Source: Candidatus Hydrogenedentota bacterium (GTDB taxonomy: Bacteria; Hydrogenedentota; Hydrogenedentia; Hydrogenedentales; SLHB01). From it: a stretch of 64,000 nucleotides of DNA. Position numbers and translations under genes: made by a program. Positions 25,042 to 60,043 of this stretch are shown here, piece after piece. Numbering within the stretch: the first letter of the stretch is position 1; the number at the start of each line of letters is the position of its first letter. Location: positions 512,001 to 576,000 of the forward strand of contig CAXXTH010000017.1 in assembly GCA_963668025.2 (NCBI GenBank), in the 5' to 3' direction. The notes beneath the pieces are model-generated. The model made no database searches and was not told the DNA's origin. It saw only the letters and a program-made list of their open reading frames with translations.

Positions 25042-25301
25042 ACACAGCGCAGCTTTTCCGCAACCAAAGCGGCTGAAATTTGTAGGATGGGGCTGGCCCC
25101 ACCGCTCAAGGAATACGCCTATATAGTCCCGACATAACTATTTGATATGCATAGAACTGAAATCATATCAAATAGTTACGGTATTCATTTTCTCGTGTGC
25201 CGTTGTAGGGGCGCACCGCCCTGATCTGTGGGGCAAGCCCCACCCTACAATTTTTAGTGTATTAAGTGGTTCATGAATTCGGATCTTGTGAATCTTGTCC
25301 A
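25042..25301. repeat. REPIN-like composite: inverted GTAG-type REP pair, inner 15-bp hairpin, flanking modules
   Basis: 25077-25102 vs reverse complement of 25228-25253 (23/26); perfect IR TAACTATTTGATATG 25135-25149 / 25164-25178; module C at 25251-25270; partial module B at 25283-25301. Confidence 0.88.
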
Positions 25302-44293: not shown

Positions 44294-45505
44294 ATGATGC
44301 ACACAGTTCTGTACTTCTTGTTTAGCGTGATTGGCGCGTATATCGCGCTATTCGCCGCGTATCTTCTATTGCTTTCCGCCGCTTCGTGGTTTCATCGCAA
44401 ACGCACCCAGCCGGATGCTGCGCCACTCCGCCTCGCCGTGGCCATACCTGCCCACAATGAAGAGAGCGGGATCGCCGCTACCGTTGCCAGTGTGTTGGGC
44501 TGCGCATATCCCGAAGAAAAACGGGCCGTTTTTGTCATCGCGGACAACTGCACGGACGGCACGGCGGACCGGGCGCGTGAATCCGGCGCGGAGGCGGCTG
44601 TCCGCACGGACATCGAGCATCGCGGCAAAGGGCAAGCCATCGAATGGTTCCTGAAAACCTATGGCGGGCAGCTCCGCGCATTTGATGGCATTGTGCTCAC
44701 GGATGCGGATACGGCGCTGGATCCCGCCTTTCTGCAAGAGGCCTCCGGCAGCTTGAGCCATCCGGATGTGGCCATTATGCAAGGGTACGACGGAGTGGGC
44801 AACGCTGGTGAAAACTGGCGCACCGCACTTACGTTCGCGGGTTTCGCTGGTGTCAACCATGTCCGTCCCGCTGGCCAGGAAACCCTCGGCGGCGCGGTTA
44901 CGCTGAAAGGGTGCGGCATGGCGTTCCGCTCTTCCGTGCTGCTCGATATGGGATGGCCCGCCCATGGCGTCGTCGAAGATATGGAACAAGGGCTCGATTT
45001 TTTGTTGTCCGGTGCGCGCGTGTCGTATAACCCAGACGCTGTGGTGCTATCGAGCATGCCCGCACACGCCCGGCAGGCCCATTCCCAGCGCACGCGATGG
45101 GAAGGCGGCCGTATGCAGCTCATGGCGCGCATGGGGCCGCGCCTGGCGTGCGCCTTTCTGCGCGAGCCGCGCTGGCGGTGGCTGGACGCCCTTCTCGAAG
45201 TGGCCACGCCGCCCCTGTCCATGCTGGCCATTGCCCTTGCCGCTTTATTTATATTAGCGCTGCTGGCATGGAATAGCGCCATGCTGCTGGCGGCATGCGT
45301 CCTAACCGCCGCTATTGCCGCGTATGTGGCCACCGGCCTGCTCCAACGCCGCGCTTCCCGCCGCGTATGGGCCGCCCTCGCGCTGGCGCCTTTATTTGTG
45401 CTGGCCAAGCTCCCCGTATACGGCGCGCTTCTCCTCGGGCGGCGGCCCACGCAATGGGTGCGCACCGAGCGCAGCGAAACGGCCCACCGGGATGATGCGT
45501 CATGA
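44294..45505 (+). CDS. Glycosyltransferase family 2 (CESA-like, membrane)
   Basis: IPAHNEE, IADNCTD, GKG, TDAD, VEDME, QRTRW. Confidence 0.9.
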   Translation: MMHTVLYFLFSVIGAYIALFAAYLLLLSAASWFHRKRTQPDAAPLRLAVAIPAHNEESGIAATVASVLGCAYPEEKRAVFVIADNCTDGTADRARESGAEAAVRTDIEHRGKGQAIEWFLKTYGGQLRAFDGIVLTDADTALDPAFLQEASGSLSHPDVAIMQGYDGVGNAGENWRTALTFAGFAGVNHVRPAGQETLGGAVTLKGCGMAFRSSVLLDMGWPAHGVVEDMEQGLDFLLSGARVSYNPDAVVLSSMPAHARQAHSQRTRWEGGRMQLMARMGPRLACAFLREPRWRWLDALLEVATPPLSMLAIALAALFILALLAWNSAMLLAACVLTAAIAAYVATGLLQRRASRRVWAALALAPLFVLAKLPVYGALLLGRRPTQWVRTERSETAHRDDAS

Positions 45506-46491
45506 ACGCCCCAGCCATCGACATCTCTTTCGTGGTCATCGGCTTCAATGAATCCCCCATCCTCGCCGATTGCATCGCTTCCTGCCGCCGCGCCGCGCCG
45601 CGCGGCCTTCAAACGGAAATCCTCTACGCCGATGGCGGCTCGACGGATGGCAGCATCTCCATCGCCCAGCAAGCTGGCGCGGACCGCATCCTGGGCGGCG
45701 ACAAGCGCAGGCGCGCCGCGGAAAATCGCAATCTCGGCCTGCACGCGGCGCAGGGGTGTTATGTGCAATTCGTGGACGGCGATATGCTGCTGGAACCGGA
45801 TTGGCCTGCGGCTGCGGTTGCCGCTCTTGAAGCGCGCCCGGAAACCGCCATCGTCTGCGGCGCACTCCATGAAAGAGGTGCGGGATTATTGTCGCGCGTG
45901 CTCGAGCTGGATTGGATTCCCGAGGAAGGCGATGTCGCCTTTTGCGGCGGGGCGTCCATGGCCCGGCGGGATGTGCTGCTTTCCCTCGGCGGTTTCCCAG
46001 AAGACGTACGCTACGGGGAAGAACCCTTTTTATGCTGGCGCATCCGCAACGAGCTGGGATTATATATTCACAAATTGAACTGTACGATGGCCCAGCATGA
46101 TTTAGGAATACACACCTTTGCCGCATATTGGCGATGGAATGGGCGCAATGGCCGCAGTTACGCGGAGATCGCCGCCCGCTGCCTGCACACGAAGGACCGC
46201 TTATGGCTCAAGCCCTGTATCTCAAACGCAGCCTGGGCGCTCCTGTTGCTCGCATCCGCCCTGATACTGCTCTTTGCCCCCTGGCCCCTGCGCGCGGCCA
46301 TATTCGTGGCATGGATAGCCGTGCTGGCGCGTAAAACGATTCATGCTTACCGGCGCACGGCGTCGCTTGCCACTTCCGCCGCCTATGCCGGACACATCTA
46401 TTTCGTCAAACTAGCATTGGCCTGGGGCCAGCTTTGCTGGATAACAGGCCATTTCGTCGCCAAGAAAAAAGGTAACAATTTAGCCGACTGA
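45502..46491 (+). CDS. Glycosyltransferase family 2
   Basis: VVIGFNE, DGGSTDGS, RNLG, QFVDGD, GEEP..CWR; C-terminal TMs; ATGA overlap. Confidence 0.88.
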   Translation: MNAPAIDISFVVIGFNESPILADCIASCRRAAPRGLQTEILYADGGSTDGSISIAQQAGADRILGGDKRRRAAENRNLGLHAAQGCYVQFVDGDMLLEPDWPAAAVAALEARPETAIVCGALHERGAGLLSRVLELDWIPEEGDVAFCGGASMARRDVLLSLGGFPEDVRYGEEPFLCWRIRNELGLYIHKLNCTMAQHDLGIHTFAAYWRWNGRNGRSYAEIAARCLHTKDRLWLKPCISNAAWALLLLASALILLFAPWPLRAAIFVAWIAVLARKTIHAYRRTASLATSAAYAGHIYFVKLALAWGQLCWITGHFVAKKKGNNLAD

Positions 46492-46558
46492 AGTGAAAGT
46501 ACCGGGACAGTTTTTGAACTGAGAATACATAATAAACCGCCTATAATGGAGGCATTTA

Positions 46559-46752
46559 TTTTTAGACATGATTTACAAGATGGGACAAGATTTTTTTTGA
46601 TGGCAATTTTGCTACACAAAAGAACGCGCCCGGATACTTTCTAGATTAACTTTCAGATTTGCAAATAATCCTGGCGATCTTGTCCAATCTTGTCCATCAT
46701 GTAAATCATGTCAAAAAAAACAGCTCTTTCTTCAGTCGGTTAAAGTATTACG
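46559..46752 (-). repeat. ~195-bp MITE-like element with module B terminal arms, copy 2
   Basis: Perfect 13-bp IR GACATGATTTACA 46565-46577 / 46700-46712; reverse complement aligns end to end with 26178-26372. Confidence 0.88.
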
Positions 46753-46805
46753 AAAAAAGAATAATTGGCTGAGTACGACAACAACGCCAACCAGGAGAAG
46801 CGCGC

Positions 46806-47285
46806 ATGCCATGCCTCATTGACCACGTAAACATCGTCGTATCGAATTTGGAGCGTTCGGTGGACTTTTACACCCGCCTATTGGGTTTTGAGCAGACGCG
46901 CCAGGCCACGCTGGAAGGGGAATGGATCGAGTCCGTCGCGGGGCTCAAGGGAGTCCATGCGGAGGTGGCGTACATCCAGCCGCCGGGCGGCGGCCCACGC
47001 ATCGAACTCATCGAATACCGTTCGCCCGCGGGCGAAGTCCTGCCCGCAAACGCCATGGCCAATACCGTGGGCTTGCGGCATCTGGCTTTCCGGGTCGAGG
47101 ATGCATGGGGGCTGTATGAACGGCTGCGGAGTGAAGGGGTGGCGTTTCTCGCGCCGCCCGTGCGCGTACCGGGGAAAGTCGTGCGGCACGATGAAGGCGA
47201 TAAATCGCTCTGTTATTTCCATGACCCCGACGGCGTGCTGCTCGAACTGGCGCAATATGACGAAAGCGCCCCTCGCCAGGCGTAG
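46806..47285 (+). CDS. VOC/glyoxalase family protein
   Basis: IDHVNIVVSNLERSVDFY..LLG, IELIEY, GLRHLAFRV, YFHDPDG.LLEL. Confidence 0.92.
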   Translation: MPCLIDHVNIVVSNLERSVDFYTRLLGFEQTRQATLEGEWIESVAGLKGVHAEVAYIQPPGGGPRIELIEYRSPAGEVLPANAMANTVGLRHLAFRVEDAWGLYERLRSEGVAFLAPPVRVPGKVVRHDEGDKSLCYFHDPDGVLLELAQYDESAPRQA

Positions 47286-47313
47286 GCCAAACAAGAGGCG
47301 CGGTGTCACCACA

Positions 47314-48372
47314 TCATGGAATAAACGTCATATCCTTCTTGAGGCCCACGAGCCATTCCGCCAGCAGCCGGGCGGCGTTCTCCGCATCCGCGAGGCTGAT
47401 CAATTCCACGGGCGAATGCATATAGCGGTTCGGAATGCTGACCAGCCCGGTGGCCATGCCGCCCCGGCTGAGCTGCATGGCGTTGGCGTCCGTGCCCGTG
47501 CCGCGCGGCGCGGCGGCAATCTGGTGGGGGATCTTCTTTTTGCGGGCGGTCTCGATGAGCTGCTTGCCCACGACGGGATTGATGTTCGCGCCCCGGAAGA
47601 GAATCGGGCCGCCATCAATTTTTCCTTCCCGGAACCGGCGCGCATCGACGGTCGGATAATCCACGGCATGGCCGACATCCACCGCGACGCCCACTTGGGG
47701 GTTGCAACCATATGCGCTCGTGGCGGCCCCGCGAAGCCCGATTTCCTCCTGCACCGTCGTAACCGCATACACCGCGCACTCAATCGTGCGCTCGGCGAGC
47801 AGCCGCAGCGCTTCCAGGATAACGAACGCGCCAATGCGATCATCAAACGCGCGCGCCACGGCCCGGCCGTTTAGCAGTTCCGTGAATCCCGCGTCAATGG
47901 TGATGGGGTCGCCAATGGCCACATGCTTTTCCGCTTCTTTTTTATCTTTCGCGCCGATATCCACCCAAAGCTGGTGAAGCTTGAGCGGCTTGCCGCGTTC
48001 TTCCACTTCCATGAGATGGATGGCCGTACGGCCGATAACGCCCGGCAGGCTGCCTTTCTGGCCATGCACCTCGACGCGCTGGCCATCCAGCACCGATGGG
48101 TCAATGCCGCCGATGGCCACGAATCCAATGAAACCGCGATCATCAATATCATTGATCATGAGTGCAATTTCATCCACGTGCCCCGCGAGCATGACCCGCA
48201 ATTCCGCGCCCGGATTCTTGACATGGTATTGATTGCCATGAACATCTTTATATATTTCATCCGCGAACGGCTTGGCGTACTGGGCGCACACTTCCTGGGC
48301 TTTTTCTTCAAAGCCCGAGGGGCTGGGCGTCGTAACCAATTCCTGTAGAAAACCGAGAGATTGCTTTTTCAT
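47314..48372 (-). CDS. M42-family metallopeptidase (TET/endoglucanase-like)
   Basis: SPSGFE, AGHVDE, AFDDR, VQEEIGLRGA, GTDA, RYMHSP. Confidence 0.93.
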   Translation of the reverse strand: MKKQSLGFLQELVTTPSPSGFEEKAQEVCAQYAKPFADEIYKDVHGNQYHVKNPGAELRVMLAGHVDEIALMINDIDDRGFIGFVAIGGIDPSVLDGQRVEVHGQKGSLPGVIGRTAIHLMEVEERGKPLKLHQLWVDIGAKDKKEAEKHVAIGDPITIDAGFTELLNGRAVARAFDDRIGAFVILEALRLLAERTIECAVYAVTTVQEEIGLRGAATSAYGCNPQVGVAVDVGHAVDYPTVDARRFREGKIDGGPILFRGANINPVVGKQLIETARKKKIPHQIAAAPRGTGTDANAMQLSRGGMATGLVSIPNRYMHSPVELISLADAENAARLLAEWLVGLKKDMTFIP

Positions 48373-48587
48373 ATGCTCTCCTTGCATTGCCGCTTCGTGT
48401 CAGCGGCGCATAATGGCCGAAATTCCGGCCACGCCAGTATCGCTCTGCACGCCTAAATACGTATAATACCGTTTCCACGCGCATAGTCCCAATAGCGCGG
48501 GGCGCCCGGAATCGCAAGCGGTGGATGCAGAAAAATGCAAAGCAAAGTAGATTCCCCGGGCGGTGGGGGATATGATAGCATTGGCGC

Positions 48588-48914
48588 ATGCAAAAGCCGA
48601 AACGCAAACCCGAGCCAGCCGAGATTTGGGCCATATGGCGGGCGAGATTGCATCCCGACCGGGTTGGGGTGCTTGTCGGGTTGTGCATGGCCATGGCTGT
48701 CATGGCGCTGGGATTTTGGCGTGGAACCGGATTTCTGGATGTCTTGTACAGGACCGCATTGGCTTTTGTGGTAAGCTGGCTGGTTACGTTCGCTGCCGTG
48801 TTCGTGGTATACCACATTTCGGACAGGGAACTGGCTCCTCCACCGGAGCCTAGCCAAGAAGCTGAGGATTTGGATAAAACGTCCCCCGAAGGGGGTGCAG
48901 GAGAACAAGAATGA
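48588..48914 (+). CDS. Small two-TM membrane protein, unknown function
   Basis: Two hydrophobic helices; stop overlaps the start of the PPIase gene (ATGA). Confidence 0.55.
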   Translation: MQKPKRKPEPAEIWAIWRARLHPDRVGVLVGLCMAMAVMALGFWRGTGFLDVLYRTALAFVVSWLVTFAAVFVVYHISDRELAPPPEPSQEAEDLDKTSPEGGAGEQE

Positions 48915-50080
48915 AACGAATAGCGGTCATGGCCTGCTGTGGCGGCGTTATGCTGGCGTTGTCTCAGCTTACTGCATGGGGGCAAAGCGCCCCCGCACCG
49001 GCAGCCCAATCCGATATCGTGTTGCGGTGTGTCCCGGATGGCCCCGTCGCCCGGGTGGATCAAGAAGCGATTGCTCCGGATGAATTCCGGGACTTGTATG
49101 TCGCGGAGCTTTTACGCCTACAGCATACGGGCGGGCAATTGGAGGATATCGAACGCATGGAACTGGCCATGCGATGCCTGCGAATGCTCATCGAGCGGAG
49201 CATGCTGTTCCAAAGCGCCCAGCAACAGGGCCTTGCGGTCACGGATGAAGAAGTCGCCACCGCTTGGAAAGAAGAAGTCGAACGCATGAGCAAAGGCCTC
49301 GCGGGCCAAAGCGGCAAGCCGCTCAGTGAAGAAGAAATTCTCAAGCTGGCCAATACAAGCCGCGAAAACGCGCTCAAAGAACTCCGCCGCACCATGCTGA
49401 TTGATAAAATGCGCGGCGTCATTGTGAAAAAAAAGAATGTAACCGCCACGGATGAGGAAGCGAAAAAATACTTTGACGATAATAAACTGAATAACCGCAT
49501 CCCCGATTCCGTGCGCATACAACAAATCTATATCAAAGTGCCTAAAACCGCTGGCGCGCCAAATCCCGCAATCGCCGAAAAGGCCCGGAAAGAAGCTGAC
49601 AACGCGTTGGCGCGGGTGAAATCCGGAGAGAAATTCGAGGCGGTGGCCAAGGCCGTCACCCAAGCCCCCAACAAACAGGGCGCCGAGGAAAATGGGACGC
49701 AAGTCGCCGTGGATGGGCTTCCCGCCGAATTGCGCCAGCCGGTCATGGCGTTAGCGCCTGGCGAAGTCAGCCCGGTAATCACGAGCGAATACGGCTTTCA
49801 TATCGTCAAGATGCTCGAAAAAGTCGCAGGCAAAGAGCCTACCTTCGAGGAAATGTCCGCCGGGATTAAAAAGCTCTTGCTCGCCCAACGAGGCAATGAG
49901 GCCGTACGCGAGTATTGCAGCGAAATGAAAAGCGAAATCACGATTTACATCGATTTTGACCGGGAAATTAAAGCCCGCCCCGACCTGCAAGAAGCCTTGA
50001 AAAAACTTCAAAAAGAAACCGATGAAAGCGCTCCGCAACAACCGGCGGCGGCCCCCAAAAAGCCCGCTTCAAAAAAATGA
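48911..50080 (+). CDS. SurA/PrsA-like peptidyl-prolyl isomerase chaperone
   Basis: Signal peptide, VARVD..AI, SurA-N helices, parvulin region (GEKFEAVAK, GEVSPVITSEYGFHIVK). Confidence 0.85.
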   Translation: MKRIAVMACCGGVMLALSQLTAWGQSAPAPAAQSDIVLRCVPDGPVARVDQEAIAPDEFRDLYVAELLRLQHTGGQLEDIERMELAMRCLRMLIERSMLFQSAQQQGLAVTDEEVATAWKEEVERMSKGLAGQSGKPLSEEEILKLANTSRENALKELRRTMLIDKMRGVIVKKKNVTATDEEAKKYFDDNKLNNRIPDSVRIQQIYIKVPKTAGAPNPAIAEKARKEADNALARVKSGEKFEAVAKAVTQAPNKQGAEENGTQVAVDGLPAELRQPVMALAPGEVSPVITSEYGFHIVKMLEKVAGKEPTFEEMSAGIKKLLLAQRGNEAVREYCSEMKSEITIYIDFDREIKARPDLQEALKKLQKETDESAPQQPAAAPKKPASKK

Positions 50081-50112
50081 TGCGCCAGGGATGCCATAAT
50101 GCTGTTTGATAC

Positions 50113-50148
50113 GAAAGGGGAGGCCTTGAAAAAGGGCTTCCCTTTTTT
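50113..50148 (+). terminator. Intrinsic terminator
   Basis: AAGGGGAGGCC / GGCTTCCCTT stem followed by T-run. Confidence 0.65.
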
Positions 50149-50200
50149 CATTAGGAGTTATGTCGTGCTCGATCATGATATTAGAGCCGAATGCCGCGCA

Positions 50201-52150
50201 ATGCCGTATAAGCGCTATGTTTTATTTTTTTGCATGGGCATACTATGCGCCATGGGAGCATTCGCCGAAGAAGCATTCGCCTGGCCGCTCGAGTTGCCGC
50301 GCGCGCTCACATCGAGCTTCGCCGAATACCGGACAGGCCGGTTCCATGCGGGCGTGGATTTGCGCACCGGGGGCATCGGCCAGCCCGTACATGCATGTAA
50401 AAACGGTTACGTATCGAGGGTGCGTTGCAGCCCTTATGGGTATGGTAAAGCCGTCTATCTCACCCTCGAAGATGGCCGCACGGTGGTGTACGCCCATCTT
50501 AATGATTACGCCCCCGCCTTGCGCGAATATGTGCGGAATGAACAGCATGCCCGCGAGACCTATACCGTGGATCTAGCTCCAACGCCGGGGCAGTTTGCCA
50601 TCCAGTGCGGCGAGGTCATCGCATATAGCGGCGACACCGGGATAGGCGCGCCGCATTTGCATTACGAGTTCCGGGAACCAGATGAACGTCCCGTGAATCC
50701 GCGTCTTTTGGATATTGCCTGGCCAGACGCCACCCCTCCAGTGGTGCGTACTATTCTTATCACCCCCATGGACCCCAGCGCGCGCATTAATGGAGACATG
50801 CAGCCGGTTATGCTCTCCGCCCATCCTCAAGGCAATGGGCGTTTTTTATGCGACGCTGTACATGCGCGCGGGCGGCTCGGTTTCGGAGCCGATATCATTG
50901 ATCCCGCCAATGGGGGCGATAATATCTTGGGCGTCTACAAACTAACGGCGGCGGCTGGCGCCGCCGAATTGTTCCGTGTTCAAAATGATTACTTGTCGTA
51001 TGACACGATACGCCACGGAGCGGTCTCCTGGCATCCGTACCTGCTGGCGCAAGGCATGTTCCTGCTGCTCTGGCGCTGGCCGGGCAACACCGCGCCCAGC
51101 TACAGCTTCTCGAGCGGCGACGGCATCTTTGATATGGGTGATGCGACCACGACGGTTACGCTGCAAGCGGAAGACTTCTCGGGCAATTCGGTCTCTATTG
51201 AGATTCCTCTAGAACCTGGCGGCCCCGGGCAATCGCCGATTCTCGATACCGCCATACCGCCGGAGAATACGCCGGGCGCGGTGGAGCTTTCCTGCTTCGG
51301 CACATGGGCCTGCATCACGGCGTCCTTCCCGCATGCGGAGCCACGGCCCCCCGTGATGCAAATAGAAGGCCCAGCGGCCAGCACGGGAGGCCGCTTTGTC
51401 CGAATTAATGACCGTACATTCCGGGCGGCCTATGACCCTTCCACAACCGGCATGGCCGCCTTGCACATCCAACATCCACGGCTGCAGGAACAGTCCTTCC
51501 GGGCCGCCGTTTTCCAGCGCGGGCAGGGAGGCCCGGCGCAGTGGGGAGATGCGGGCGTCGAAGCCGGCGCCAATGCCGCCTATGGGACACTCTTCATCTT
51601 GGAAGAAGATAAGCCCGCCGAATCCCCCGAAGCCTTGCGCATGCTGGGGCATCCCTATCGCTTCTGGCCGGACGCCGCTCCAATTGATGAGCCCATCACG
51701 ATCACCCTGCCGCTTCCCGAAGGCATTAGCGACCCATCAACGCTCGCCATCTATCGCAAAACGAACAAGGGCTGGGCCATGAAAGACACGACACGCAAGG
51801 ATGGCGCGCTGTGCGCACGCACCAATGAACTAGGTGTTTTCGCGGTGTTGGCGGACGAACAGCCCCCCCTCATCGACCAAGTGCAGCCGGGTGATGGCTG
51901 CTCCACGGCGAAGCGCCCCACGATTCGGGCGAGTATCGCGGATGGCGGAAGCGGCGTGGAAGCGTTCGAGATACGCGCCAATGGCCAATGGCTGTTAGCG
52001 GAATATGATCCAGAAGAAAACCGGCTCGAATGGGCGCGTGATGAAGACCTGCCCAGCGGCAATGTCTGTATCGAATTCCGCGTGACGGATAACGCAGGAA
52101 ACACCGCCACCGCCATGCGGAACATCCATGCCGGCGAAGCAAGCAAGTAG
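50201..52150 (+). CDS. M23-family peptidase with C-terminal Ig-like extension
   Basis: Signal peptide, FAEYR.GRFHAGVDL, YGKA, YAHL, SGDTG..APHLHYE. Confidence 0.88.
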   Translation: MPYKRYVLFFCMGILCAMGAFAEEAFAWPLELPRALTSSFAEYRTGRFHAGVDLRTGGIGQPVHACKNGYVSRVRCSPYGYGKAVYLTLEDGRTVVYAHLNDYAPALREYVRNEQHARETYTVDLAPTPGQFAIQCGEVIAYSGDTGIGAPHLHYEFREPDERPVNPRLLDIAWPDATPPVVRTILITPMDPSARINGDMQPVMLSAHPQGNGRFLCDAVHARGRLGFGADIIDPANGGDNILGVYKLTAAAGAAELFRVQNDYLSYDTIRHGAVSWHPYLLAQGMFLLLWRWPGNTAPSYSFSSGDGIFDMGDATTTVTLQAEDFSGNSVSIEIPLEPGGPGQSPILDTAIPPENTPGAVELSCFGTWACITASFPHAEPRPPVMQIEGPAASTGGRFVRINDRTFRAAYDPSTTGMAALHIQHPRLQEQSFRAAVFQRGQGGPAQWGDAGVEAGANAAYGTLFILEEDKPAESPEALRMLGHPYRFWPDAAPIDEPITITLPLPEGISDPSTLAIYRKTNKGWAMKDTTRKDGALCARTNELGVFAVLADEQPPLIDQVQPGDGCSTAKRPTIRASIADGGSGVEAFEIRANGQWLLAEYDPEENRLEWARDEDLPSGNVCIEFRVTDNAGNTATAMRNIHAGEASK

Positions 52151-52265
52151 GGTGCGCTTGCCCCCACTGCTCAAGGCCATTCGTTCGACAAGCAGAAAAG
52201 CCTCGACATAACCCGTCATGACGATTGCCTTTTTCCCACCACGAAGAACCGAAGAACACGAAAGG
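52147..52265 (+). repeat. Left arm of island: REP module A (52147-52176) and 9-mer module C (52231-52265)
   Basis: GTAGGGTGCGCTTGCCCCCACTGCTCAAGG matches 25082-25111 at 24/30; ACCACGAAGAACCGAAGAACACGAAAG. Confidence 0.75.
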
Positions 52266-52458
52266 ATTGGGAAGGATTCCGTGAGTGATGGTATATATCA
52301 GATAATCTTCCGTAAATACGAAAAATGAAATAAATGAAAAAGGATTGTTTTTTTACACCTATTGTGCTAATTTGCATACTAGTAGTTGTATCCCGCAGAT
52401 TATTGATTGGTAATCGGACGCCGGATTCCTTGTTATATACATGGGGATAAACAATCAA

Positions 52459-53481
52459 ATGGACACGACTGTAGTAGAAACACTAAAAGACATAAAGGGA
52501 AAACTAAAAAATCATGCCTATTATAATGAGGAACATACACGAATTAACGTAGTATTACGGCTATTAATGGATCTTGGTTGGAACATATGGGATCCATCTT
52601 TCGTATATCTAGAATATCCTGTCGCAAGAGAAGAGGAGTCAACAAAAGTAGATATTGCTCTATTTATTAACAAGCGCACAGCCATGTTCATCGAGGTAAA
52701 AGCACACAAAAAACTCGTGACCGATATAACCAATGTCGAAAGACAACTCAGAAATTATAACCGAGATAATACAGCGGAAATAACAATCGCAACAGATGGA
52801 CAAAATTGGCGTCTATATTATTCTCAAACAGACGGAAAGTTTGCAGACAAATTATTCCATGAACTTGACCTTCTGAAAGATAAAGAGGACGATATCCATC
52901 TTTGGTTGGATTCCTTTTTGTCATTTGAAGAAATACGTAGTGGAAACGCACTAAAAACGGCCAAAGAATTTCTTGAACGAGAAAGACGGCAGAAGTATTT
53001 GCAGGATTGCTTCCCTGACGCCAAGGAACTCACAATTACAGATCCCAGGCTAAGCGTGTTCCATGCGATGTGCCAGAAATTGAAAGAACGTAATGTTGAG
53101 ATTCCGGAAGATGAAATCATTGAATTCTTAAAAAGCCCCCAAATCAAGCCAGTGTCCTCTGAGGAATTGCGAGTTACAGATGATACTGTTCATGATACAA
53201 GCGTTTCCTCTGTTAGCGCTGGTCACACGAAGACTCATTATGACTGTTCTTTGCCTCCCGACGGCACAAAATGCAAAATTGAGATGAAGGGCAAATCGTA
53301 CACCGGAGTCGTCGTCAATAATAAGAAAATCAAAATTGATGGACAATCCGATCAATATTCATTAAGTGGGGCATCAGAAAAGCTTTACGGTGGACCACAT
53401 AATGGATGGAGAGAATGGGAGTTTTTCATAAACGGTAAATGGATCCTAGCAGAGTCATGGCGAGAAAATCGCAAAAGATAA
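52459..53481 (+). CDS. HsdR_N-like PD-(D/E)xK nuclease with C-terminal RAMA/DUF4357-like domain
   Basis: NEEHTR...LL.DLGW...EY....VDIAL.....FIEVK, IATDG..WRLY; C-terminal SLSGAS..LYGG.HNGWREW; very AT-rich; alternative start 52441. Confidence 0.72.
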   Translation: MDTTVVETLKDIKGKLKNHAYYNEEHTRINVVLRLLMDLGWNIWDPSFVYLEYPVAREEESTKVDIALFINKRTAMFIEVKAHKKLVTDITNVERQLRNYNRDNTAEITIATDGQNWRLYYSQTDGKFADKLFHELDLLKDKEDDIHLWLDSFLSFEEIRSGNALKTAKEFLERERRQKYLQDCFPDAKELTITDPRLSVFHAMCQKLKERNVEIPEDEIIEFLKSPQIKPVSSEELRVTDDTVHDTSVSSVSAGHTKTHYDCSLPPDGTKCKIEMKGKSYTGVVVNNKKIKIDGQSDQYSLSGASEKLYGGPHNGWREWEFFINGKWILAESWRENRKR

Positions 53482-53604
53482 TAAAATATTTATAACATAT
53501 ATATAATGCACATATTTTATTAGTCATTTTGACTCTGAATTACTTAGGTTGAATTTTGGAGAAGTCCTCGATTCTTCTTGCAGAGCACATGAAAGGAATG
53601 ACAA

Positions 53605-54178
53605 ATGTCATGTGAGCCACTAATCTCTGCAATTATTGGCGGTGGACTTGCGGGATTATTCACATTTGGAGGTGTCCGGTTAGCTGAGAAATATAATAGA
53701 AACAGAAAGGCCGAAGACGAAAAAAGGGTAATCGCGGGGCTATTGCATTCCCTTCATGATGAAATTGAAGCAGTTAATTTGCAGTATAGAGAAAGAATGG
53801 GAAAACAGATTGAAGCACTTAAAAAGGGAGAGCCTCTTTTGAGTTTTTTTCCCCGTAGGACAAGATTATTTCACAGTGTTTAATTCAAATGCGTCTCTTA
53901 TTGGGCATATCAACGACAATGAGCTACGTAAACAACTCGTGAAAACATATACTCTAGCAAAAGGATTAATTGACACTTATAGCATGAATAACGAACTAGT
54001 CCTAAAGTATGAGCAGTGGAACTTTATGGCAAGAACCTCTCAAGATCCTACACACACATTATTTGTACAAATTCTACATGATCAGCTTATCAACTATGCT
54101 CTGGCAATAAAAGATTCTCACCAGATTACTCAGATTGCTGTAGATAGCTTACTCAAGAAGTTGAAAGAGCACTTGTGA
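53605..54178 (+). pseudogene. Hypothetical N-terminal TM protein split by a 1-nt indel
   Basis: ORFs 53605-53883 and 53876-54178 join (LSFFPVGQDYFTVFNSNA) if one base of the T7-C4 run (53844-53854) is removed. Confidence 0.65.
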
Positions 54179-54293
54179 GCGGTGGGGCAAGCCCCACCCA
54201 CAAAATTTACGTGTATTTCGTGTATTTAGTGGTCTCGAAATCCGGCTTTTGGGGGTGCGGCTAAGCAACGCCATGTACTTCGTGGTGAAAATT
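54176..54293 (-). repeat. Right arm of island: REP module A (-), module C (-) twice
   Basis: Perfect stem GGTGGGGC-AA-GCCCCACC 54181-54198; TTTACGTGTATTTCGTGTATTTAGTGGT 54206-54233; GTACTTCGTGGTGAAAA 54275-54291. Confidence 0.82.
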
Positions 54294-54302
54294 TCCGGGG
54301 GC

Positions 54303-55636
54303 CTACGGCAGGAATTGCGCCAGCATGTCGCTCGTGATATCGCCCCGGCGGAACCGGTCGCTACGGATAATCCGGGCGCAGAGCTGGGCGGTGGTTTTCA
54401 CCCCTTCCGTGGAGAATTCCTCGAGCGCGCCCGCAAGGCGGTTAATCGCCTCATCGCGGTTGCGCCCATACCCAATGACTTTCGCCAGTAAGGAATCGTA
54501 GTACCGGGGCACGGTGTAGCCCGGGAAAAGATGGCTGTCCACCCGGATGCCCGGCCCTCCCGGGAAGTGGCAGCGCGTCACAAGGCCGGGCGATGGCGCG
54601 AAATTATTATCGGGGTCTTCCGCATACACCCGCGCCTCAATCGCAGCGCCTTTAGGCTCGATAACGCCAAAGCTCAGTTCTTCGCCAGCCGCCACGAAAA
54701 GCTGTTCCTTGACCAGATCATACCCCGTAACCTGCTCCGTTACCGGATGCTCGACCTGGATACGCGCATTAAATTCGATGAAGAAGAAATCGCCATTCTG
54801 CGAGAGGAGAAATTCGGCGGTTCCTGCATTCGTATATCCCATGGCCTTGGCGGCGATAACGGCCGCATCGGACATGCGGGCGCGCAATTCGGGAGAAAGC
54901 CCCGTTGAAGGCGTCTCCTCGATCAGCTTTTGATGGCGGCGCTGGATCGTGCATTCGCGCTCGCCAGGCTTACCACATGGCCATGATTATCGGCGAAAAT
55001 CTGTATCTCGACATGGCGGGAATTCTCAAGGAATTTCTCGAGATAGACCCCTCCATCGCCGAAGGCGGCTTCCGCTTCAGCCGAAGCCATGCTCACGGCG
55101 TTTTGCAGGGCCACTTCGTTGTGGGCGATGCGCATCCCCTTGCCGCCGCCCCCCGCGGAAGCCTTCACCAGCACGGGGAATCCGATCTCGCGGGCCAGGC
55201 GCAAGGCCTCGTCGGGGTCTTTAATCAATCCCTCGCTGCCCGGCACAACCGGCACGCCTGCATTTTTCACCGTCTCGCGGCACATGGATTTGTTGCCGCT
55301 GAGCGAGATGGCTTCCGGCGTAGGCCCGATGAAGCCGATGCCGCATTCGCGGCAAATCTCGGCGAATTTGGCGTTCTCGGAGAGGAAGCCGTAGCCGGGA
55401 TGAATCGCATGCGCGTCGCAGATCTCCGCCGCCGCGATAATGCTCGGCATATGAAGATAGCTGTGCGTGGCGGAAGGCGGGCCAATGCAGATGCTCTCAT
55501 CGGCTAAAGAGGCGTGCAGGCTGTCGCGATCCGCCTCGGAATACACCGCGATGGACGCCGCACCGATCTCGCGGCAGGCGCGAATCACCCGGACAGCGAT
55601 TTCTCCGCGATTGGCTATGAGGATTCGACGGAACAT
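54303..55636 (-). CDS. accC: Acetyl-CoA carboxylase biotin carboxylase; 1-nt frameshift near 54964 in this sequence
   Basis: [55 protein letters not shown]; adding one G restores [16 protein letters not shown]. Confidence 0.92.
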
Positions 55637-55645
55637 GGGGCGGAA

Positions 55646-56161
55646 TCAGCCCTCCTCGATGGGCCGCAAGGCAAAAAGCGGCTGGCCATATTCAACTGGT
55701 TCCGCATTCTCCACAAGCACCTTCACGATGACGCCGCTCATTTTCGCCGTCACTTCGTTCATGAGCTTCATGGCTTCTACGATGCACACAGTCTGGCCTT
55801 CCTCGACGACGCTCCCCACTTCCACGAAGGAGGGTTCGCCGGGGGCGGGCGCGATATAGAATACGCCCACCATCGGGGAATTGATGGTGGCAAGCCCCTC
55901 TTCTTCTTTAGCCGGTTCCGGCGCCACTGGGGCGGATGCCGGCTGGGCAAATCCCAAACCAGGCTGCTGCGCCAAGGCGGAAGAAAACGGCGCTTCATAC
56001 ATCTGGGGTATGGAAGCTCCCATATGAGTATGCGGAGGAAGAACGAATTCCTTGGGGCTCTTTTTAAGCAGAATACGGCTGCCCTTCTCTTCAATTTCTA
56101 TTTCAGAGATATTGGCGGCCTCGAATACTTGAATGATTTCACGCAGTTTATCCAAGTCCAC
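55646..56161 (-). CDS. accB: Biotin carboxyl carrier protein
   Basis: SPMVG.FY, VEAMKLMNE biotinylation motif, VEYGQPLF. Confidence 0.95.
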   Translation of the reverse strand: MDLDKLREIIQVFEAANISEIEIEEKGSRILLKKSPKEFVLPPHTHMGASIPQMYEAPFSSALAQQPGLGFAQPASAPVAPEPAKEEEGLATINSPMVGVFYIAPAPGEPSFVEVGSVVEEGQTVCIVEAMKLMNEVTAKMSGVIVKVLVENAEPVEYGQPLFALRPIEEG

Positions 56162-56196
56162 TTATGAGACCTCCCACGACCCGCCGAGAAGGCGCA

Positions 56197-56760
56197 TCAA
56201 CTGCTGACGCGTTCGATATACGCGCTTGTCCGTGTGTCCACCTTGATAGTCTCGCCCTCGTTTACGAAGAGCGGCACTTGGACCGTCACCCCCGTCTCGA
56301 GCGTGGCGGGCTTGGTGCCGCCCGACGCCCGATCTCCTTGTATGCCCGGATCGCATTTAGTGATCTTCAATATGACGGATGCCGGCACGCTCACCTTGAT
56401 GACTTTGTTGTTGTGGAACAACAAGGTGACCTTGTCGTTTTCTTTCATCCAATCCGAGCTATCGCCTATAACGGTGCTGCTGACTTCAATTTGTTCGTAG
56501 GAGTCGGGGTCCATGAAGTGAAACAAATCGCCATCGTAATAAAGATACTGCCAAGAACGTTCTTCGAGCCGGGCTTCTTCCATCTTTTCACCCGAGCGGA
56601 AGGTTTTCTCGAGAACGCGCCCCGTCAACACATTCTTAAAGCGGGTGCGCACAAACGCGCCGCCCTTGCCGGGCTTGACGTGCTGGAATTCGACAATTTC
56701 CATCAAACCGCCGTCCATTTCAACCACTAAACCATTCCGAAAATCTGCTGTCGAGATCAT
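56197..56760 (-). CDS. efp: Elongation factor P
   Basis: MISTADFRNG, FQHVKPGKGGAFVR, PGIQGD, KPATLETG..VQVPLF. Confidence 0.96.
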   Translation of the reverse strand: MISTADFRNGLVVEMDGGLMEIVEFQHVKPGKGGAFVRTRFKNVLTGRVLEKTFRSGEKMEEARLEERSWQYLYYDGDLFHFMDPDSYEQIEVSSTVIGDSSDWMKENDKVTLLFHNNKVIKVSVPASVILKITKCDPGIQGDRASGGTKPATLETGVTVQVPLFVNEGETIKVDTRTSAYIERVSS

Positions 56761-57830
56761 GTGCCAAGTATCCTGAGTTCTCGAGGCGCGCTGCTGAGTA
56801 TAGAGCACCCCTGTTCTGTGATTGCGATGACATCCTCAATGCGAACCCCGCCCCGCCCCGGTATATACACACCCGGCTCGACGGTGACGACCATGCCGGG
56901 CTCGAGTATCGTATCCGAGAACCGGTTGGCGCGGGGCTGCTCGTGGATCTCAATCCCCACGCCATGCCCCAATCCGTGGCCGAAATGGGCCCCCTGGCCT
57001 GCCTCGGATATCAAGCTGCGTGCGATAGCGTCAAATTCCCGGCATCGCATGCCGGGGCGGACGGCTTCAACCGCCATCCGTTGCGCCGCCAGCACAAGAT
57101 GATATGTTTCCTCAAACCACGTGCCGGGGATCGTACCGAATGCATAAGTACGTGTCAAGTCGGAGCAGTAGCCATCAAGCCGGCAGCCAAAATCCACCAG
57201 CACAATATCCCCCCACTCGAGGCTTGCGCTGCCAGGCTCCCCATGCGGCAACGAACTGCGCGCGCCAAATAGCGCAATGGTGGGGAACGATGCCCCTGAA
57301 GCGCCTTTCCGCTGGAAAGCATACTCGAACCGGGCCGCCAGCTCCCGCTCCGTCATGCCTATCTCCACCAGCTCCATGGTGTCGGAGAGGACATCCTCCG
57401 CCAGCTCGAGCGCTTTGCGAATCGATTCGATCTCTTCCGGGGATTTCACCGCACGCATGCTTGATACCAGCCCGGCCTCGGGGCATGCTTCGCCGTGAAG
57501 CTCTTCCTCGAATCTACGAAGCTGGCTTACCAAGAGGTAGTCCGGTTCAAATACGGCGCGCTTCGCCCGGCGCTTGTTGAAGAACGCCGCCACGGCCTTC
57601 ATTTGTTCGCCGGTCACTTCCTCGACCGCCATGCCTTGCACTTGCGCCTGGGCTTGCTCGGTATACCGGGAATCACAAAAAAAACGCGCATCATCCAAGG
57701 TCACGGCCACGGCCGAAGTCGTGCCGCGAAACTCCGTGAGATACTGATTGGCTGGCGGAGCCGCGCTAAAAAAGGCGTCGCACTGCGCCTCCTGCATCCG
57801 CGTGCGCAAGCGTTCTATTCGTTCCAGCAC
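56757..57830 (-). CDS. Xaa-Pro aminopeptidase (M24B)
   Basis: DSRYTEQA, RAVKS.EEI, PHG, DFG...GYCSD.TRT, HGLGHGVG.EIHE, VEPG.Y; GTG start after AAGGAGG. Confidence 0.9.
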   Translation of the reverse strand: MLERIERLRTRMQEAQCDAFFSAAPPANQYLTEFRGTTSAVAVTLDDARFFCDSRYTEQAQAQVQGMAVEEVTGEQMKAVAAFFNKRRAKRAVFEPDYLLVSQLRRFEEELHGEACPEAGLVSSMRAVKSPEEIESIRKALELAEDVLSDTMELVEIGMTERELAARFEYAFQRKGASGASFPTIALFGARSSLPHGEPGSASLEWGDIVLVDFGCRLDGYCSDLTRTYAFGTIPGTWFEETYHLVLAAQRMAVEAVRPGMRCREFDAIARSLISEAGQGAHFGHGLGHGVGIEIHEQPRANRFSDTILEPGMVVTVEPGVYIPGRGGVRIEDVIAITEQGCSILSSAPRELRILGT

Positions 57831-57913
57831 GATGTCCGCCTCCTTACACAAAACAGTTGTTTCCTGCGTAGTATACACCCCACGTACGGCGTCTGTTTCA
57901 TCCACGCAGTGAA

Positions 57914-59170
57914 TTAAAAAACCAAACCTGGCGCTCCATAGTGCTCCATCAGCCAGGTGCGCGCTTCCCCGACCGTGAACACGGACCCCGTGATCACGAA
58001 TGGCAGGCCCGCATGGGCATGGGCCATGCCATAATCCACCGCTTCGCCTAGCCGCTCGAAGCGGCGGTGCGGACGCCCATGCGCCGCCGCGCATAACACA
58101 TCCACCGGCAACGACCTCGAACCGGCATACTGCGTCAACAGCAATTCCGCCGCGTACGGCGCTAATTCGTCTATCATGCGCTCCGCGGCTTTATCGCCCG
58201 ATACAGCCATCATAATAATCGATGGCCCGAGCTGCGGCGCAAGCTGCTGGGCTCCGCTGTAATTATGCGCGACATCCATGATGACGGGCGGCGTTTCAAG
58301 CACGCGCTCGAAACGGCCCGGCCATCGCGCCTGGGACAACCCTTGGGCGATAGCTCCCGCAAGGAGCCGGGGAAACTGCTCCCGGAGCGTTTCCGCCACG
58401 GCCACGGCCACGGCTGCGTTCACGCCTTGATATGCTCCCTGGAGTCCTAGATCAACCGGGCCAATACGCAGACGTTCGCTTTCGTACGTAAAACGGCCAC
58501 CAGCCAGCGCGTAATGAAAATCACGGCCCAGCAGTTTCGCGGGGCTATCCAGGGCGCGCGCCTGTTCAAGAATGACGCCAAGCGGCCCGAGGTGGGTTTC
58601 CGATACCACCACCGGCACGCCGGGCTTAATAATCCCCGCCTTCTCGAAGGCAATCAACTCCAGCGTTTCGCCGAGGTATTGAGTATGCTCCAGGCCGATA
58701 TTCGTAATGGCGGCGCATGCCGGGGTGATCACATTCGTCGAATCGAACCGCCCGCCAAGGCCCACTTCAATGAGGCCCATGTCCACCCGCTGCTCCGCGA
58801 ACCACCGGAAGCACGCCGCCGTGGCGGCTTCAAAAAAAGTAGGATTGGGCTGCATGGGTTCCGCGATGCGGCGGACAAACGCAAGCTGGCGGTCCAGCTC
58901 ATCATCACGGATCGGGGCGGCGTTCAACAAAAAACGCTCGTTCAATGTAATGAGATGGGGGCTGGTGAAGCGCCCCGTCGAGTAGCCAGCGGCGCGGAAT
59001 ATCGCATCGAGCATCGCCACGACGCTGCCCTTGCCGTTGGTGCCCGCCACATGGATGGAAGGAAACGCACGCTGGGGCTCGCCCGCCTGCTCGAGCAGAT
59101 ACCGGATATTGTCCAGCCCGAGTTTTATCCCGAACCGTTCAAGGCTATATAGATATGCCCGCGCATCCAA
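57914..59170 (-). CDS. folC: Folylpolyglutamate synthase/dihydrofolate synthase
   Basis: HVAGTNGKGS, FTSPHL, TFFE, EVGLGGRFDSTNV, EKAGIIK, WPGRFE, DVAHN. Confidence 0.95.
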   Translation of the reverse strand: MDARAYLYSLERFGIKLGLDNIRYLLEQAGEPQRAFPSIHVAGTNGKGSVVAMLDAIFRAAGYSTGRFTSPHLITLNERFLLNAAPIRDDELDRQLAFVRRIAEPMQPNPTFFEAATAACFRWFAEQRVDMGLIEVGLGGRFDSTNVITPACAAITNIGLEHTQYLGETLELIAFEKAGIIKPGVPVVVSETHLGPLGVILEQARALDSPAKLLGRDFHYALAGGRFTYESERLRIGPVDLGLQGAYQGVNAAVAVAVAETLREQFPRLLAGAIAQGLSQARWPGRFERVLETPPVIMDVAHNYSGAQQLAPQLGPSIIMMAVSGDKAAERMIDELAPYAAELLLTQYAGSRSLPVDVLCAAAHGRPHRRFERLGEAVDYGMAHAHAGLPFVITGSVFTVGEARTWLMEHYGAPGLVF

Positions 59171-59182
59171 GCTGGAGGCCGT

Positions 59183-60043
59183 TCAATGCCGTTCCCGCGG
59201 GCTTAAATAACGCAGGAGTTTGCCCAGGATAGTGCGGAGTTCCGTACGCGGCACAATCATGTCCACGAATCCGTTTTTAAATTGGTACTCCGCCGATTGA
59301 AAGCCTTCCGGCAGTTTAACTTTGAGAGCGCCTTCAATAAGCCGCGGACCGGCAAAACCCACATGCGCGCCCGGCTCCGCAATGGTGATATCGCCCAGGC
59401 TGGCGAAAGAGGCGTACACGCCCCCTGTCGTGGGATTGGTCAGTACGACGATATACGGTATCGCGGCGTCGTTCATGGCGCGCACGGCGTCGGAAGTCTT
59501 CGCCATTTGCATGAGGCTCAATATGCCTTCTTCCATGCGCGCGCCGCCTGAGGCGGTAATCACAATAAAGGGAATGCGTTCCTGGATGGCGTCTTCAGCA
59601 GCCCGGCAGAATTTTTCACCCAGGGCCGAGCCCATGCTTCCGCCACGAAACGAGAAATCCATCGCACCCAGCACCGTGCGTACGCTATCGATACAAGCGA
59701 AACCCGTCACCAACCCTTCATTCAAGCCCGACTTCTGTTTGCCCTGGAGAATCTTATCCGGATACGAATAGCCGACGGCCTCGATGACAAAGCCTAGGGG
59801 ATCCGCGCTCTCGATGCCGGCATGTGTTTCTTCGAACGTATCCGGATCGGCCAGCCAGGCGATGCGGCGGCGGGCCTTCACGCGGTAATGATATCCGCAT
59901 CCCGTGCAGACCATCTGGTTTTCACGCAAGTCACGATGGAAAATCACTTGCTTGCAGCCATCGCACTTGAGCACCAAGCCGGGAGGCACATTGCTCTTGC
60001 GGCCCACTACCGAAACGAAACGCCTACGACTTAAAAACGCCAT
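59183..60043 (-). CDS. accD: Acetyl-CoA carboxylase carboxyltransferase beta subunit
   Basis: C4 zinc finger, MDFSFRGGSMG...GEK, SGGARMEEG..SLMQMAK, PTTGGVYASFA, GFAGPR. Confidence 0.95.
   Translation of the reverse strand: MAFLSRRRFVSVVGRKSNVPPGLVLKCDGCKQVIFHRDLRENQMVCTGCGYHYRVKARRRIAWLADPDTFEETHAGIESADPLGFVIEAVGYSYPDKILQGKQKSGLNEGLVTGFACIDSVRTVLGAMDFSFRGGSMGSALGEKFCRAAEDAIQERIPFIVITASGGARMEEGILSLMQMAKTSDAVRAMNDAAIPYIVVLTNPTTGGVYASFASLGDITIAEPGAHVGFAGPRLIEGALKVKLPEGFQSAEYQFKNGFVDMIVPRTELRTILGKLLRYLSPRERH

Follow-up and report, generated by a model that had tools for sequence, protein, structure and literature searches.

A small AT-rich islet between inverted REP palindromes in a Hydrogenedentota genome is probably foreign DNA and not a repeat-borne cassette

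The stretch of Candidatus Hydrogenedentota DNA analyzed here (the window; 64,000 nt, positions 512001-576000 of contig C17 in a genome of 6.15 Mb, 24 contigs and 55% GC) contains an AT-rich island between two convergently oriented genes, one for an M23 peptidase and one for the biotin carboxylase AccC. The island is bracketed by two inverted copies of a repetitive extragenic palindrome (REP), here named REP A, and carries two genes, cargo genes 1 and 2. The evidence points to an unremarkable small islet of foreign origin in a convergent gap rich in repeats, and we consider it probable that the REPs are bystanders or at most recombination substrates, not carriers of the islet. The initial annotation had read the same arrangement as a REPIN (a REP doublet forming a hairpin) that had been loaded with cargo. 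This proposal was not sustained, as the island is present in a single copy, its spacer measures 1999 nt, both arms are defective, the flanks are asymmetric and there is no second case in the genome. The coordinates of the features are compiled in Table 1.

Table 1. Coordinates of the island, its flanks, the REP-associated transposase gene and other REP pairs (positions in the window unless a contig is given)
Feature	Position	Strand	Remarks
M23 peptidase gene	50099..52150	+	PF01551 at 7.6e-14
Left arm, decayed REP A copy	52147..52176	-	GTAG intact, stem damaged
Left spacer and 9-mer array	52177..52262	-	degenerate spacer, then GTTCTTCG-type array at 52229-52262
Unique AT-rich insert	52263..54175	.	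1.9 kb, 38% GC; sharp GC drop from ~52290
Cargo gene 1	52441..53481	+	346 aa; HsdR_N PD-(D/E)xK, 'predicted type IV restriction endonuclease' family
Cargo gene 2	53605..54178	+	ORFs 53605-53883 and 53876-54178 in frames 1 and 2, one gene split
Right arm, REP A copy	54176..54199	+	blastn-short score 24; nhmmer E 3.7e-6
Conserved REP tail	54200..54290	+	9-mers GTGTATTTN, then GTGGTCTCGAAATCCGG, then GCGGC hairpin-like end
accC (biotin carboxylase)	54303..55636	-	Pfam domains on both ORF pieces; stop codon 54303-54305
Compact REP A doublet	25081-25111 / 25219-25249		same orientation as island pair; 107 nt between, internal inverted repeat
RAYT gene	C10:908629-909183		NF047646 (REP-associated tyrosine transposase), 1.4e-47, 161 bits against a cut-off of 80
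REP pair	C10:908596		encloses the RAYT gene
REP pair	C17:943843-944422		518-nt interior, 78-aa ORF with predicted membrane helices
REP pair	C3:141558-142283		667-nt interior; ~190-nt GC-rich stretch within AT-rich DNA, looks structured
REP pair	C23:195205-197711		1.84-kb insertion sequence (575-aa transposase ORF), nested in another repeat family
Remaining long REP pairs			enclose housekeeping genes

The island is set apart from its surroundings by composition. In 200-nt windows the GC content is 0.535 at 52100-52299, reaches 0.39 at 52200-52399, stays at 0.325-0.435 up to 54199 and is regained at 0.555-0.62 from 54200 on. The fall to AT-rich DNA between about 52290 and 54175 that was described in the initial annotation was recovered (from ~0.58 to 0.33-0.43), and so were both boundaries: the stop codon TAG of the M23 gene (52148-50) lies within the GTAG (52147-50) of a REP aligned at 52147-52176, and the stop codon TGA of the last island open reading frame (ORF; 54176-54178) provides the first three bases of the inverted REP at 54176-54199. 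The further claim that the island has no integrase, transposase, tRNA or direct repeat agreed with our domain, tRNA and repeat searches. No tRNA gene was found in 45000-60000, no integrase, transposase or recombinase domain in the island ORFs and no direct repeat flanking the island, hence these hallmarks of a transposon, an integron cassette or an integrative island are missing at this site. Neither the DNA at 52263-54175, its non-coding parts included, nor cargo gene 1 has a second copy in the genome. Predicted promoter and terminator sites in the island showed no excess over shuffled sequences. A search inside the island with profiles of the repeat modules that accompany many REP copies gave no match (best E 2.3), and the possibility that the first 100 nt of the AT-rich DNA are a diverged module was rejected, the best profile hit having this E value of 2.3 and lying on the wrong strand.

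The two arms differ in age and both are defective compared to the REP A consensus. REP A and the left arm are 87% identical in an alignment of 31 columns that includes 2 gaps; the blastn-short score is 19, the maximum score in a reversed-genome control being 17. The flanks of this arm, CCTTGAGC and CACCCTAC, are intact around the damaged stem. Because this arm is missed by nhmmer at E<=100 and its folding (-4.9 kcal/mol, z +0.48) is no better than that of shuffled sequences, it is regarded as a decayed copy. The right arm forms a hairpin with a perfect stem (-9.9 kcal/mol, z -3.26), and its CTAC tag has lost the T, reading CCCACCCACA where CCCACCCTACA is expected. The T is also missing in contig record 19 of the public sequencing run X5, which spans 50842-54239 with 0 differences and 0 gaps, hence the loss is not specific to this assembly. 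The arms are complementary at 78% over 18 nt and represent inverted REPs of one family, 52147-52176 on the minus and 54176-54199 on the plus strand, with a GC content of 0.384 in the 1999-nt spacer between them.

REP A together with its enzyme, a REP-associated tyrosine transposase (RAYT), is a textbook GTAG-tagged REP/RAYT system. The 15-mer core GGGGCAAGCCCCACC has 110 exact copies in the genome; the consensus reads TTGA(A/G)C-GGTGGGGCAAGCCCCACC-CTACA, it includes an 8-bp perfect palindrome, and each base of the CTAC tag (GTAG on the other strand) is conserved at 0.96-0.97 among these 110 copies. A blastn-short search of the whole genome with a 31-mer copy yielded 151 non-overlapping copies scoring at least 18. 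In a pattern search allowing at most 2 mismatches, this genome gave 134 matches and 28 of the 30 relatives gave none, while the relative G024 has 17 matches with a compensatory change in the stem. This variant, GGTGGGCCAAGGCCCACCCTAC (for example at G024:C3:127234-127255), carries a swap from G-C to C-G compared with REP A, and such natural covariation supports the hairpin. The RAYT ORF encodes 184 aa with HUH and Y motifs and is enclosed by an inverted REP A pair at C10:908596-909214, the whole being a complete REPtron; the GC content inside the segment is 0.43. It is the sole NF047646 match above the cut-off in the genome, and matches above the cut-off are present in 20 of the 31 genomes of the order. 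Other Y1 transposases were considered as the REP enzyme and rejected, since REP A flanks none of the 19 PF01797 matches, with the exception of an IS200 copy adjoining a REP doublet. Close REP pairs (at most 1 kb) show a clear preference in orientation: 15 of 19 have their GTAG ends outward, compared to 4 across the other three orientations (binomial 1.2e-6).

Many REP copies are parts of larger mosaics. On the CTACA side, a tail of ~95 nt follows 80 of the 151 copies and consists of 9-mers (GTGTATTTN), the sequence GTGGTCTCAAAATCCGG and a GCGGC...GCCGC end; on the other side, one of several module families precedes. Arrays of the 9-mers are also present independently; of 82 strict copies, 49 have a REP within 120 nt. 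At the right boundary of the island the coverage by repeats rises sharply at 54172-54180 and is gone by 54290, where the tail ends ~12 nt short of the accC stop codon. At the left boundary, 26-34 nt of the 9-mer array are 88-96% identical to 7 other loci that are parts of a repeat resembling miniature inverted-repeat transposable elements (MITE-like), and the segment 52177-52262 is counted with the left repeat unit and not with the island. The composite flanks lack mirror symmetry: going outward from the island, one meets on the left a 9-mer array, of another subtype than that on the right, and then the REP, but on the right first the REP, directly at the edge of the island, and then the 9-mers. 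The MITE-like repeat occurs genome-wide (C18:235073, C10:363667, C10:529097, C24:8396); its ends resemble the REP tail and consist of CCGGATTTTGCACCACGAAGAAACGAAGAACACGAAG and its inverted counterpart, with a CCACAGATGGCGCAGATGACACAGATG hairpin between them. In addition, those REP units that look as if copied whole, at ~250-300 nt, have several ~130-nt module families in common.

Whether the bracketing is special was evaluated from low-GC islands and from other REP pairs in the genome. With low-GC islands defined as at least 1 kb of DNA with GC <0.43 in 300-nt windows, 89 were found, of which 7 have a REP at one or more boundaries and 2 at both. The second doubly bracketed 'island' (C3:141558) is itself a doublet of REPs 667 nt apart and bears no gene; none of the other 87 islands of at least 1 kb has REPs at both boundaries. 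Given 151 copies in 6.15 Mb, 0.026 doubly bracketed cases are expected by chance among 89 islands, and 0.007 in the orientation of the present one. It had been allowed initially that the arms might be abundant enough for bracketing by chance, and this objection does not hold at an expectation of 0.026. No second gene-bearing low-GC island is bracketed. A second inverted pair reported at about 25077-25253 was located (25081-25111 and 25219-25249, 107 nt apart) and is of ordinary REPIN-like form.

Pairs with outward GTAG have spacers of 0-17, 103-146 and 204-667 nt, followed by the 1999 nt of the island; the compact doublets of the genome occupy the range of 0-146 nt. The GC content of these spacers is 0.29-0.57, or 0.35-0.47 where the spacer reaches at least 100 nt, and REP pairs larger than that of the island are of normal GC. 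Among the REP pairs with an AT-rich interior, that of the RAYT is the only other one with a supported gene: for the 78-aa ORF between the REPs at C17:943843, a collection of 5.8 billion proteins holds no homologue. Rfam searches of three REP doublets returned nothing at gathering score and one match at chance level (E 0.34, C3:141558). The insertion sequence inside the pair at C23:195205 has 5 copies in the genome at >=99.8% identity, and its nested position indicates that REP pairs collect insertions in this genome.

The island contains three ORF pieces: 52441-53481 (346 aa), 53605-53883 (92 aa) and 53876-54178 (100 aa). Cargo gene 1 is intact, and its domains and conserved residues make a solitary nuclease of restriction type its most likely product. 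It matches PF04313 (2.1e-9, 37.9 bits, cut-off 25.1) and PF13588 (1.8e-7, 31.7 bits, cut-off 25), and its 103 homologues, the best with 39% identity, are named 'type I restriction enzyme HsdR N-terminal domain-containing protein' or 'predicted type IV restriction endonuclease'. D71, E85 and K87, the D...ExK signature, are invariant in an alignment of 23 sequences, in which the first ~210 residues are conserved and a small C-terminal domain is variable. This domain is shared with the four closest homologues and gave weak matches to DUF4357 (E 0.044) and to PADLOC PDC-S14 (E 0.0011, partial, over 52 residues); it may sense the DNA target. A role in defence by cutting foreign or modified DNA would fit the family. 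The genome has no paralogue of this gene. Solitary HsdR_N or Mrr-like type IV genes likewise combine an N-terminal PD-(D/E)xK domain (PF04313, PF13588) carrying D...ExK with a variable C-terminal domain, but that of cargo gene 1 resembles DUF4357 and PDC-S14 only weakly.

Cargo gene 2 encodes a membrane-anchored helical protein of an uncharacterized, sporadic family and is probably inactivated by a one-base frameshift. The break is due to one extra base in a T7/C4 run at 53844-53854, and skipping one base restores a read-through of 190 aa, which aligns without gaps at 33-43% identity with 17 full-length homologues of 188-229 aa. Proteins of this family have ~200 aa and a nearly invariant HDEIE motif; Pfam, NCBIfam and PADLOC contain nothing that matches them. 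An all-helical fold, with a long N-terminal helix and a helical bundle, is predicted for the family by AlphaFold (predicted local distance difference test score, pLDDT, 90.4); the model has no match in the PDB at E<=0.001, and its neighbours in the Atlas are all unnamed. The relatives occupy 59 loci in many phyla, each time as a single gene amid heterogeneous neighbours, among them IMP dehydrogenase, YidC and transposases.

The public sequencing runs allow a judgement on this frameshift. Three of six runs, all from one study, contain half or more of the sequence words of the stretch; X4 and X5, from one sample, show it as in the window, while X6, from a second sample of the same study, contains parts only, and its lack of cover at 52387-53037 is a hole and not a finding. 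The break in cargo gene 2 is repeated in contigs of both samples (X5 record 19; X6 record 29 at 53571-54116, 0 gaps). accC is also split in the window (54923-54960), but there all three public-run contigs spanning 54770-55208 have one extra letter, hence the accC split is probably a one-base assembly error, and the assembly may hold further indels of this kind. Since the contigs, in contrast to the accC case, repeat the break of cargo gene 2, it is probably real, although a homopolymer error common to the contigs would be possible if the runs were long-read.

The earlier view of a two-gene island stands for its first gene, which is intact, but not for its second, which is split by the frameshift to give three ORF pieces in all. 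A defence-type two-gene system finds no support either. No relative of cargo gene 1 was found within 6 kb of the cargo gene 2 relatives at any of the 59 genomic loci, and none of 37 viral loci (30 for the family of cargo gene 1 and 7, of which 3 are strong, for that of cargo gene 2) has both families. As the families never occur together at these 59 and 37 loci, the cargo genes are regarded as independent accessory genes and not as a system.

These observations are best accommodated, as we have argued, by an islet of foreign DNA in a convergent gap where REPs are abundant. The composition of the island marks it as foreign; its origin and the order of events are inferred. A horizontally acquired DNA of 1.9 kb would have lodged between the convergent M23 and accC genes, in a genome that, like other REP-bearing genomes, fills such gaps with mosaic repeats resembling bacterial interspersed mosaic elements (BIMEs). 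The left REP would be an old, decayed unit behind the M23 gene, and the right REP a younger REP-plus-tail unit that came to abut the last island gene. The islet itself holds two unrelated, stand-alone accessory genes, the first intact and the second broken. Several points weigh against this explanation. The bracketing exceeds random scatter, given that the expectation is only 0.007-0.026, and the RAYT gene itself lies within the same REP arrangement as the island. Moreover, an islet dropped into an existing doublet should have left remnants of spacer modules beside the right REP; none were seen, and the repeat starts sharply at 54172-54180. Finally, the relatives compared all belong to other genera, so that an empty site or an alternative occupant lies outside their scope.

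The comparison with relatives bears on a second explanation, in which a rearrangement, or a homology-assisted uptake, used the REPs and mosaic repeats as scattered stretches of homology and joined M23, island and accC, the arms then marking crossover points and not transposition. In the 30 genomes searched M23 is at most 49% identical. Orthologues at 39-49% identity keep a SurA-like gene upstream, a conserved synteny that ends at the 3' end of M23. accC was not found within 1.5 kb of M23 at 14 loci in the relatives, nor in 20-kb regions of 4 of them, so the adjacency seen here is absent from all of these. In two relatives (L025, L027) the gene following M23 is a convergent orthologue (76% identity) of C17:787978-789465, which lies 224 kb away in the present genome, hence the 3' end of M23 is a synteny breakpoint. 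Also in favour of this explanation, the arms differ in age and both gene ends run straight into REP flanks. However, with relatives from other genera and at most 49% identity in M23, the breakpoint could be an ancient one that has no connection with the island; there is no REP A near C17:787978-789465, and no partner junction was identified. Recombination through the repeats is rated as unlikely. A metagenome scan with M23 gave one distant match of 33% identity. Among the joints listed for the public-run contigs none runs across the island; this check used contigs, in which rare excision products would be invisible. A 903-nt contig of X6 is exact over 51406-52278 and then continues with 30 unlike letters close to the AT-rich start; it is ambiguous between a variant junction and an artefact of the assembly graph.

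A third explanation treats 52147-54201 as a REP-bounded cassette that was moved in trans by the RAYT of this genome and has since decayed at its ends. Regarding the arms, it is correct that they are genuine members of the REP-RAYT system: their palindrome has copies throughout the genome, the GTAG tag is recognizable, though without its T in the right arm, and a cognate RAYT flanked by the same REP is present and intact. The orientation of the island pair is that of the RAYT's own flanks and of 15 of 19 close pairs (binomial 1.2e-6), the AT-rich interior resembles that of other doublets (0.35-0.46) and of the RAYT segment (0.43), and the right REP touches the cargo directly. Nevertheless, there is no sign that the arms carried genes. 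The hairpin is lost on the left (z +0.48) and the tag is mutated on the right, and for three RAYTs it has been reported that GTAG tag and intact stem matter for cleavage, changes reducing or abolishing it (PMC8266576); the analogy is with RAYTs other than the one studied here. Unique coding DNA makes up the 1999-nt spacer, which cannot fold as one hairpin and in this differs from the REPINs described in PMC3337134. One copy exists in place of a population of copies, the composite flanks are asymmetric, and among the AT-rich REP pairs, the RAYT excepted, none has a supported gene, the 78-aa ORF at C17:943843 being without homologue. Transport by the RAYT is accordingly judged as quite unlikely. 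Pure coincidence, with two independent REPs flanking an unrelated AT-rich island, is very improbable: REPs are described as frequent in convergent intergenic gaps (PMC3733652) and 7 of the 89 islands have one at one or both boundaries, but the doubly bracketed expectation of 0.026, or 0.007 with the orientation of this island, is far below the case observed.

Compared with known systems, REP A shares with the GTAG-tagged REPs, REPINs and RAYTs of Pseudomonas fluorescens SBW25 and Stenotrophomonas maltophilia (group-3) the high-copy intergenic palindrome with an 8-bp stem and GTAG tag, the inverted doublets, the single-copy RAYT flanked by its own REPs and a lineage-specific REP sequence. REPIN spacers are given as 18-112 nt, with the whole element folding as one hairpin (PMC3337134), or as 20-100 bp (PMC3733652), whereas the island has 1999 nt of unique coding DNA between defective arms and no sign of copying. 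The alternation of REPs with other motifs, here 9-mer arrays, the ~95-nt tail and upstream modules, is reminiscent of enterobacterial BIMEs; however, the motif sequences are unrelated, some units of ~250-300 nt look copied whole, and the repeats have no known binding of host factors. REPs and their dimers have been described as insertion sites of mobile DNA by Tobes and Pareja in 2006 (PMC1525189) and for ISPpu9 (PMC12288879). The island resembles these cases in that foreign DNA lies between REP partners, and this genome does have an insertion sequence nested in such a pair, but the island is without transposase, integrase, terminal repeats of its own or target duplication.

The alternative of transport by the RAYT would have the larger consequences. 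If true, the island would be the first gene-carrying REPIN, and RAYTs would gain a role in the spread of defence genes; REP/RAYT systems would then be occasional vehicles for accessory, defence-type genes and not just the source of short, non-coding REPINs. The usual view of RAYTs is that they are domesticated and mobilize nothing but short repeats. With the islet as foreign DNA in a repeat-rich gap, which we prefer, the analysis still yields two by-products, namely a clear-cut REP-RAYT system, rich in mosaic repeats, from a lineage that has received little study, and an uncharacterized, widely scattered family of small membrane proteins, represented by cargo gene 2, that could be a candidate for a role in phage exclusion.

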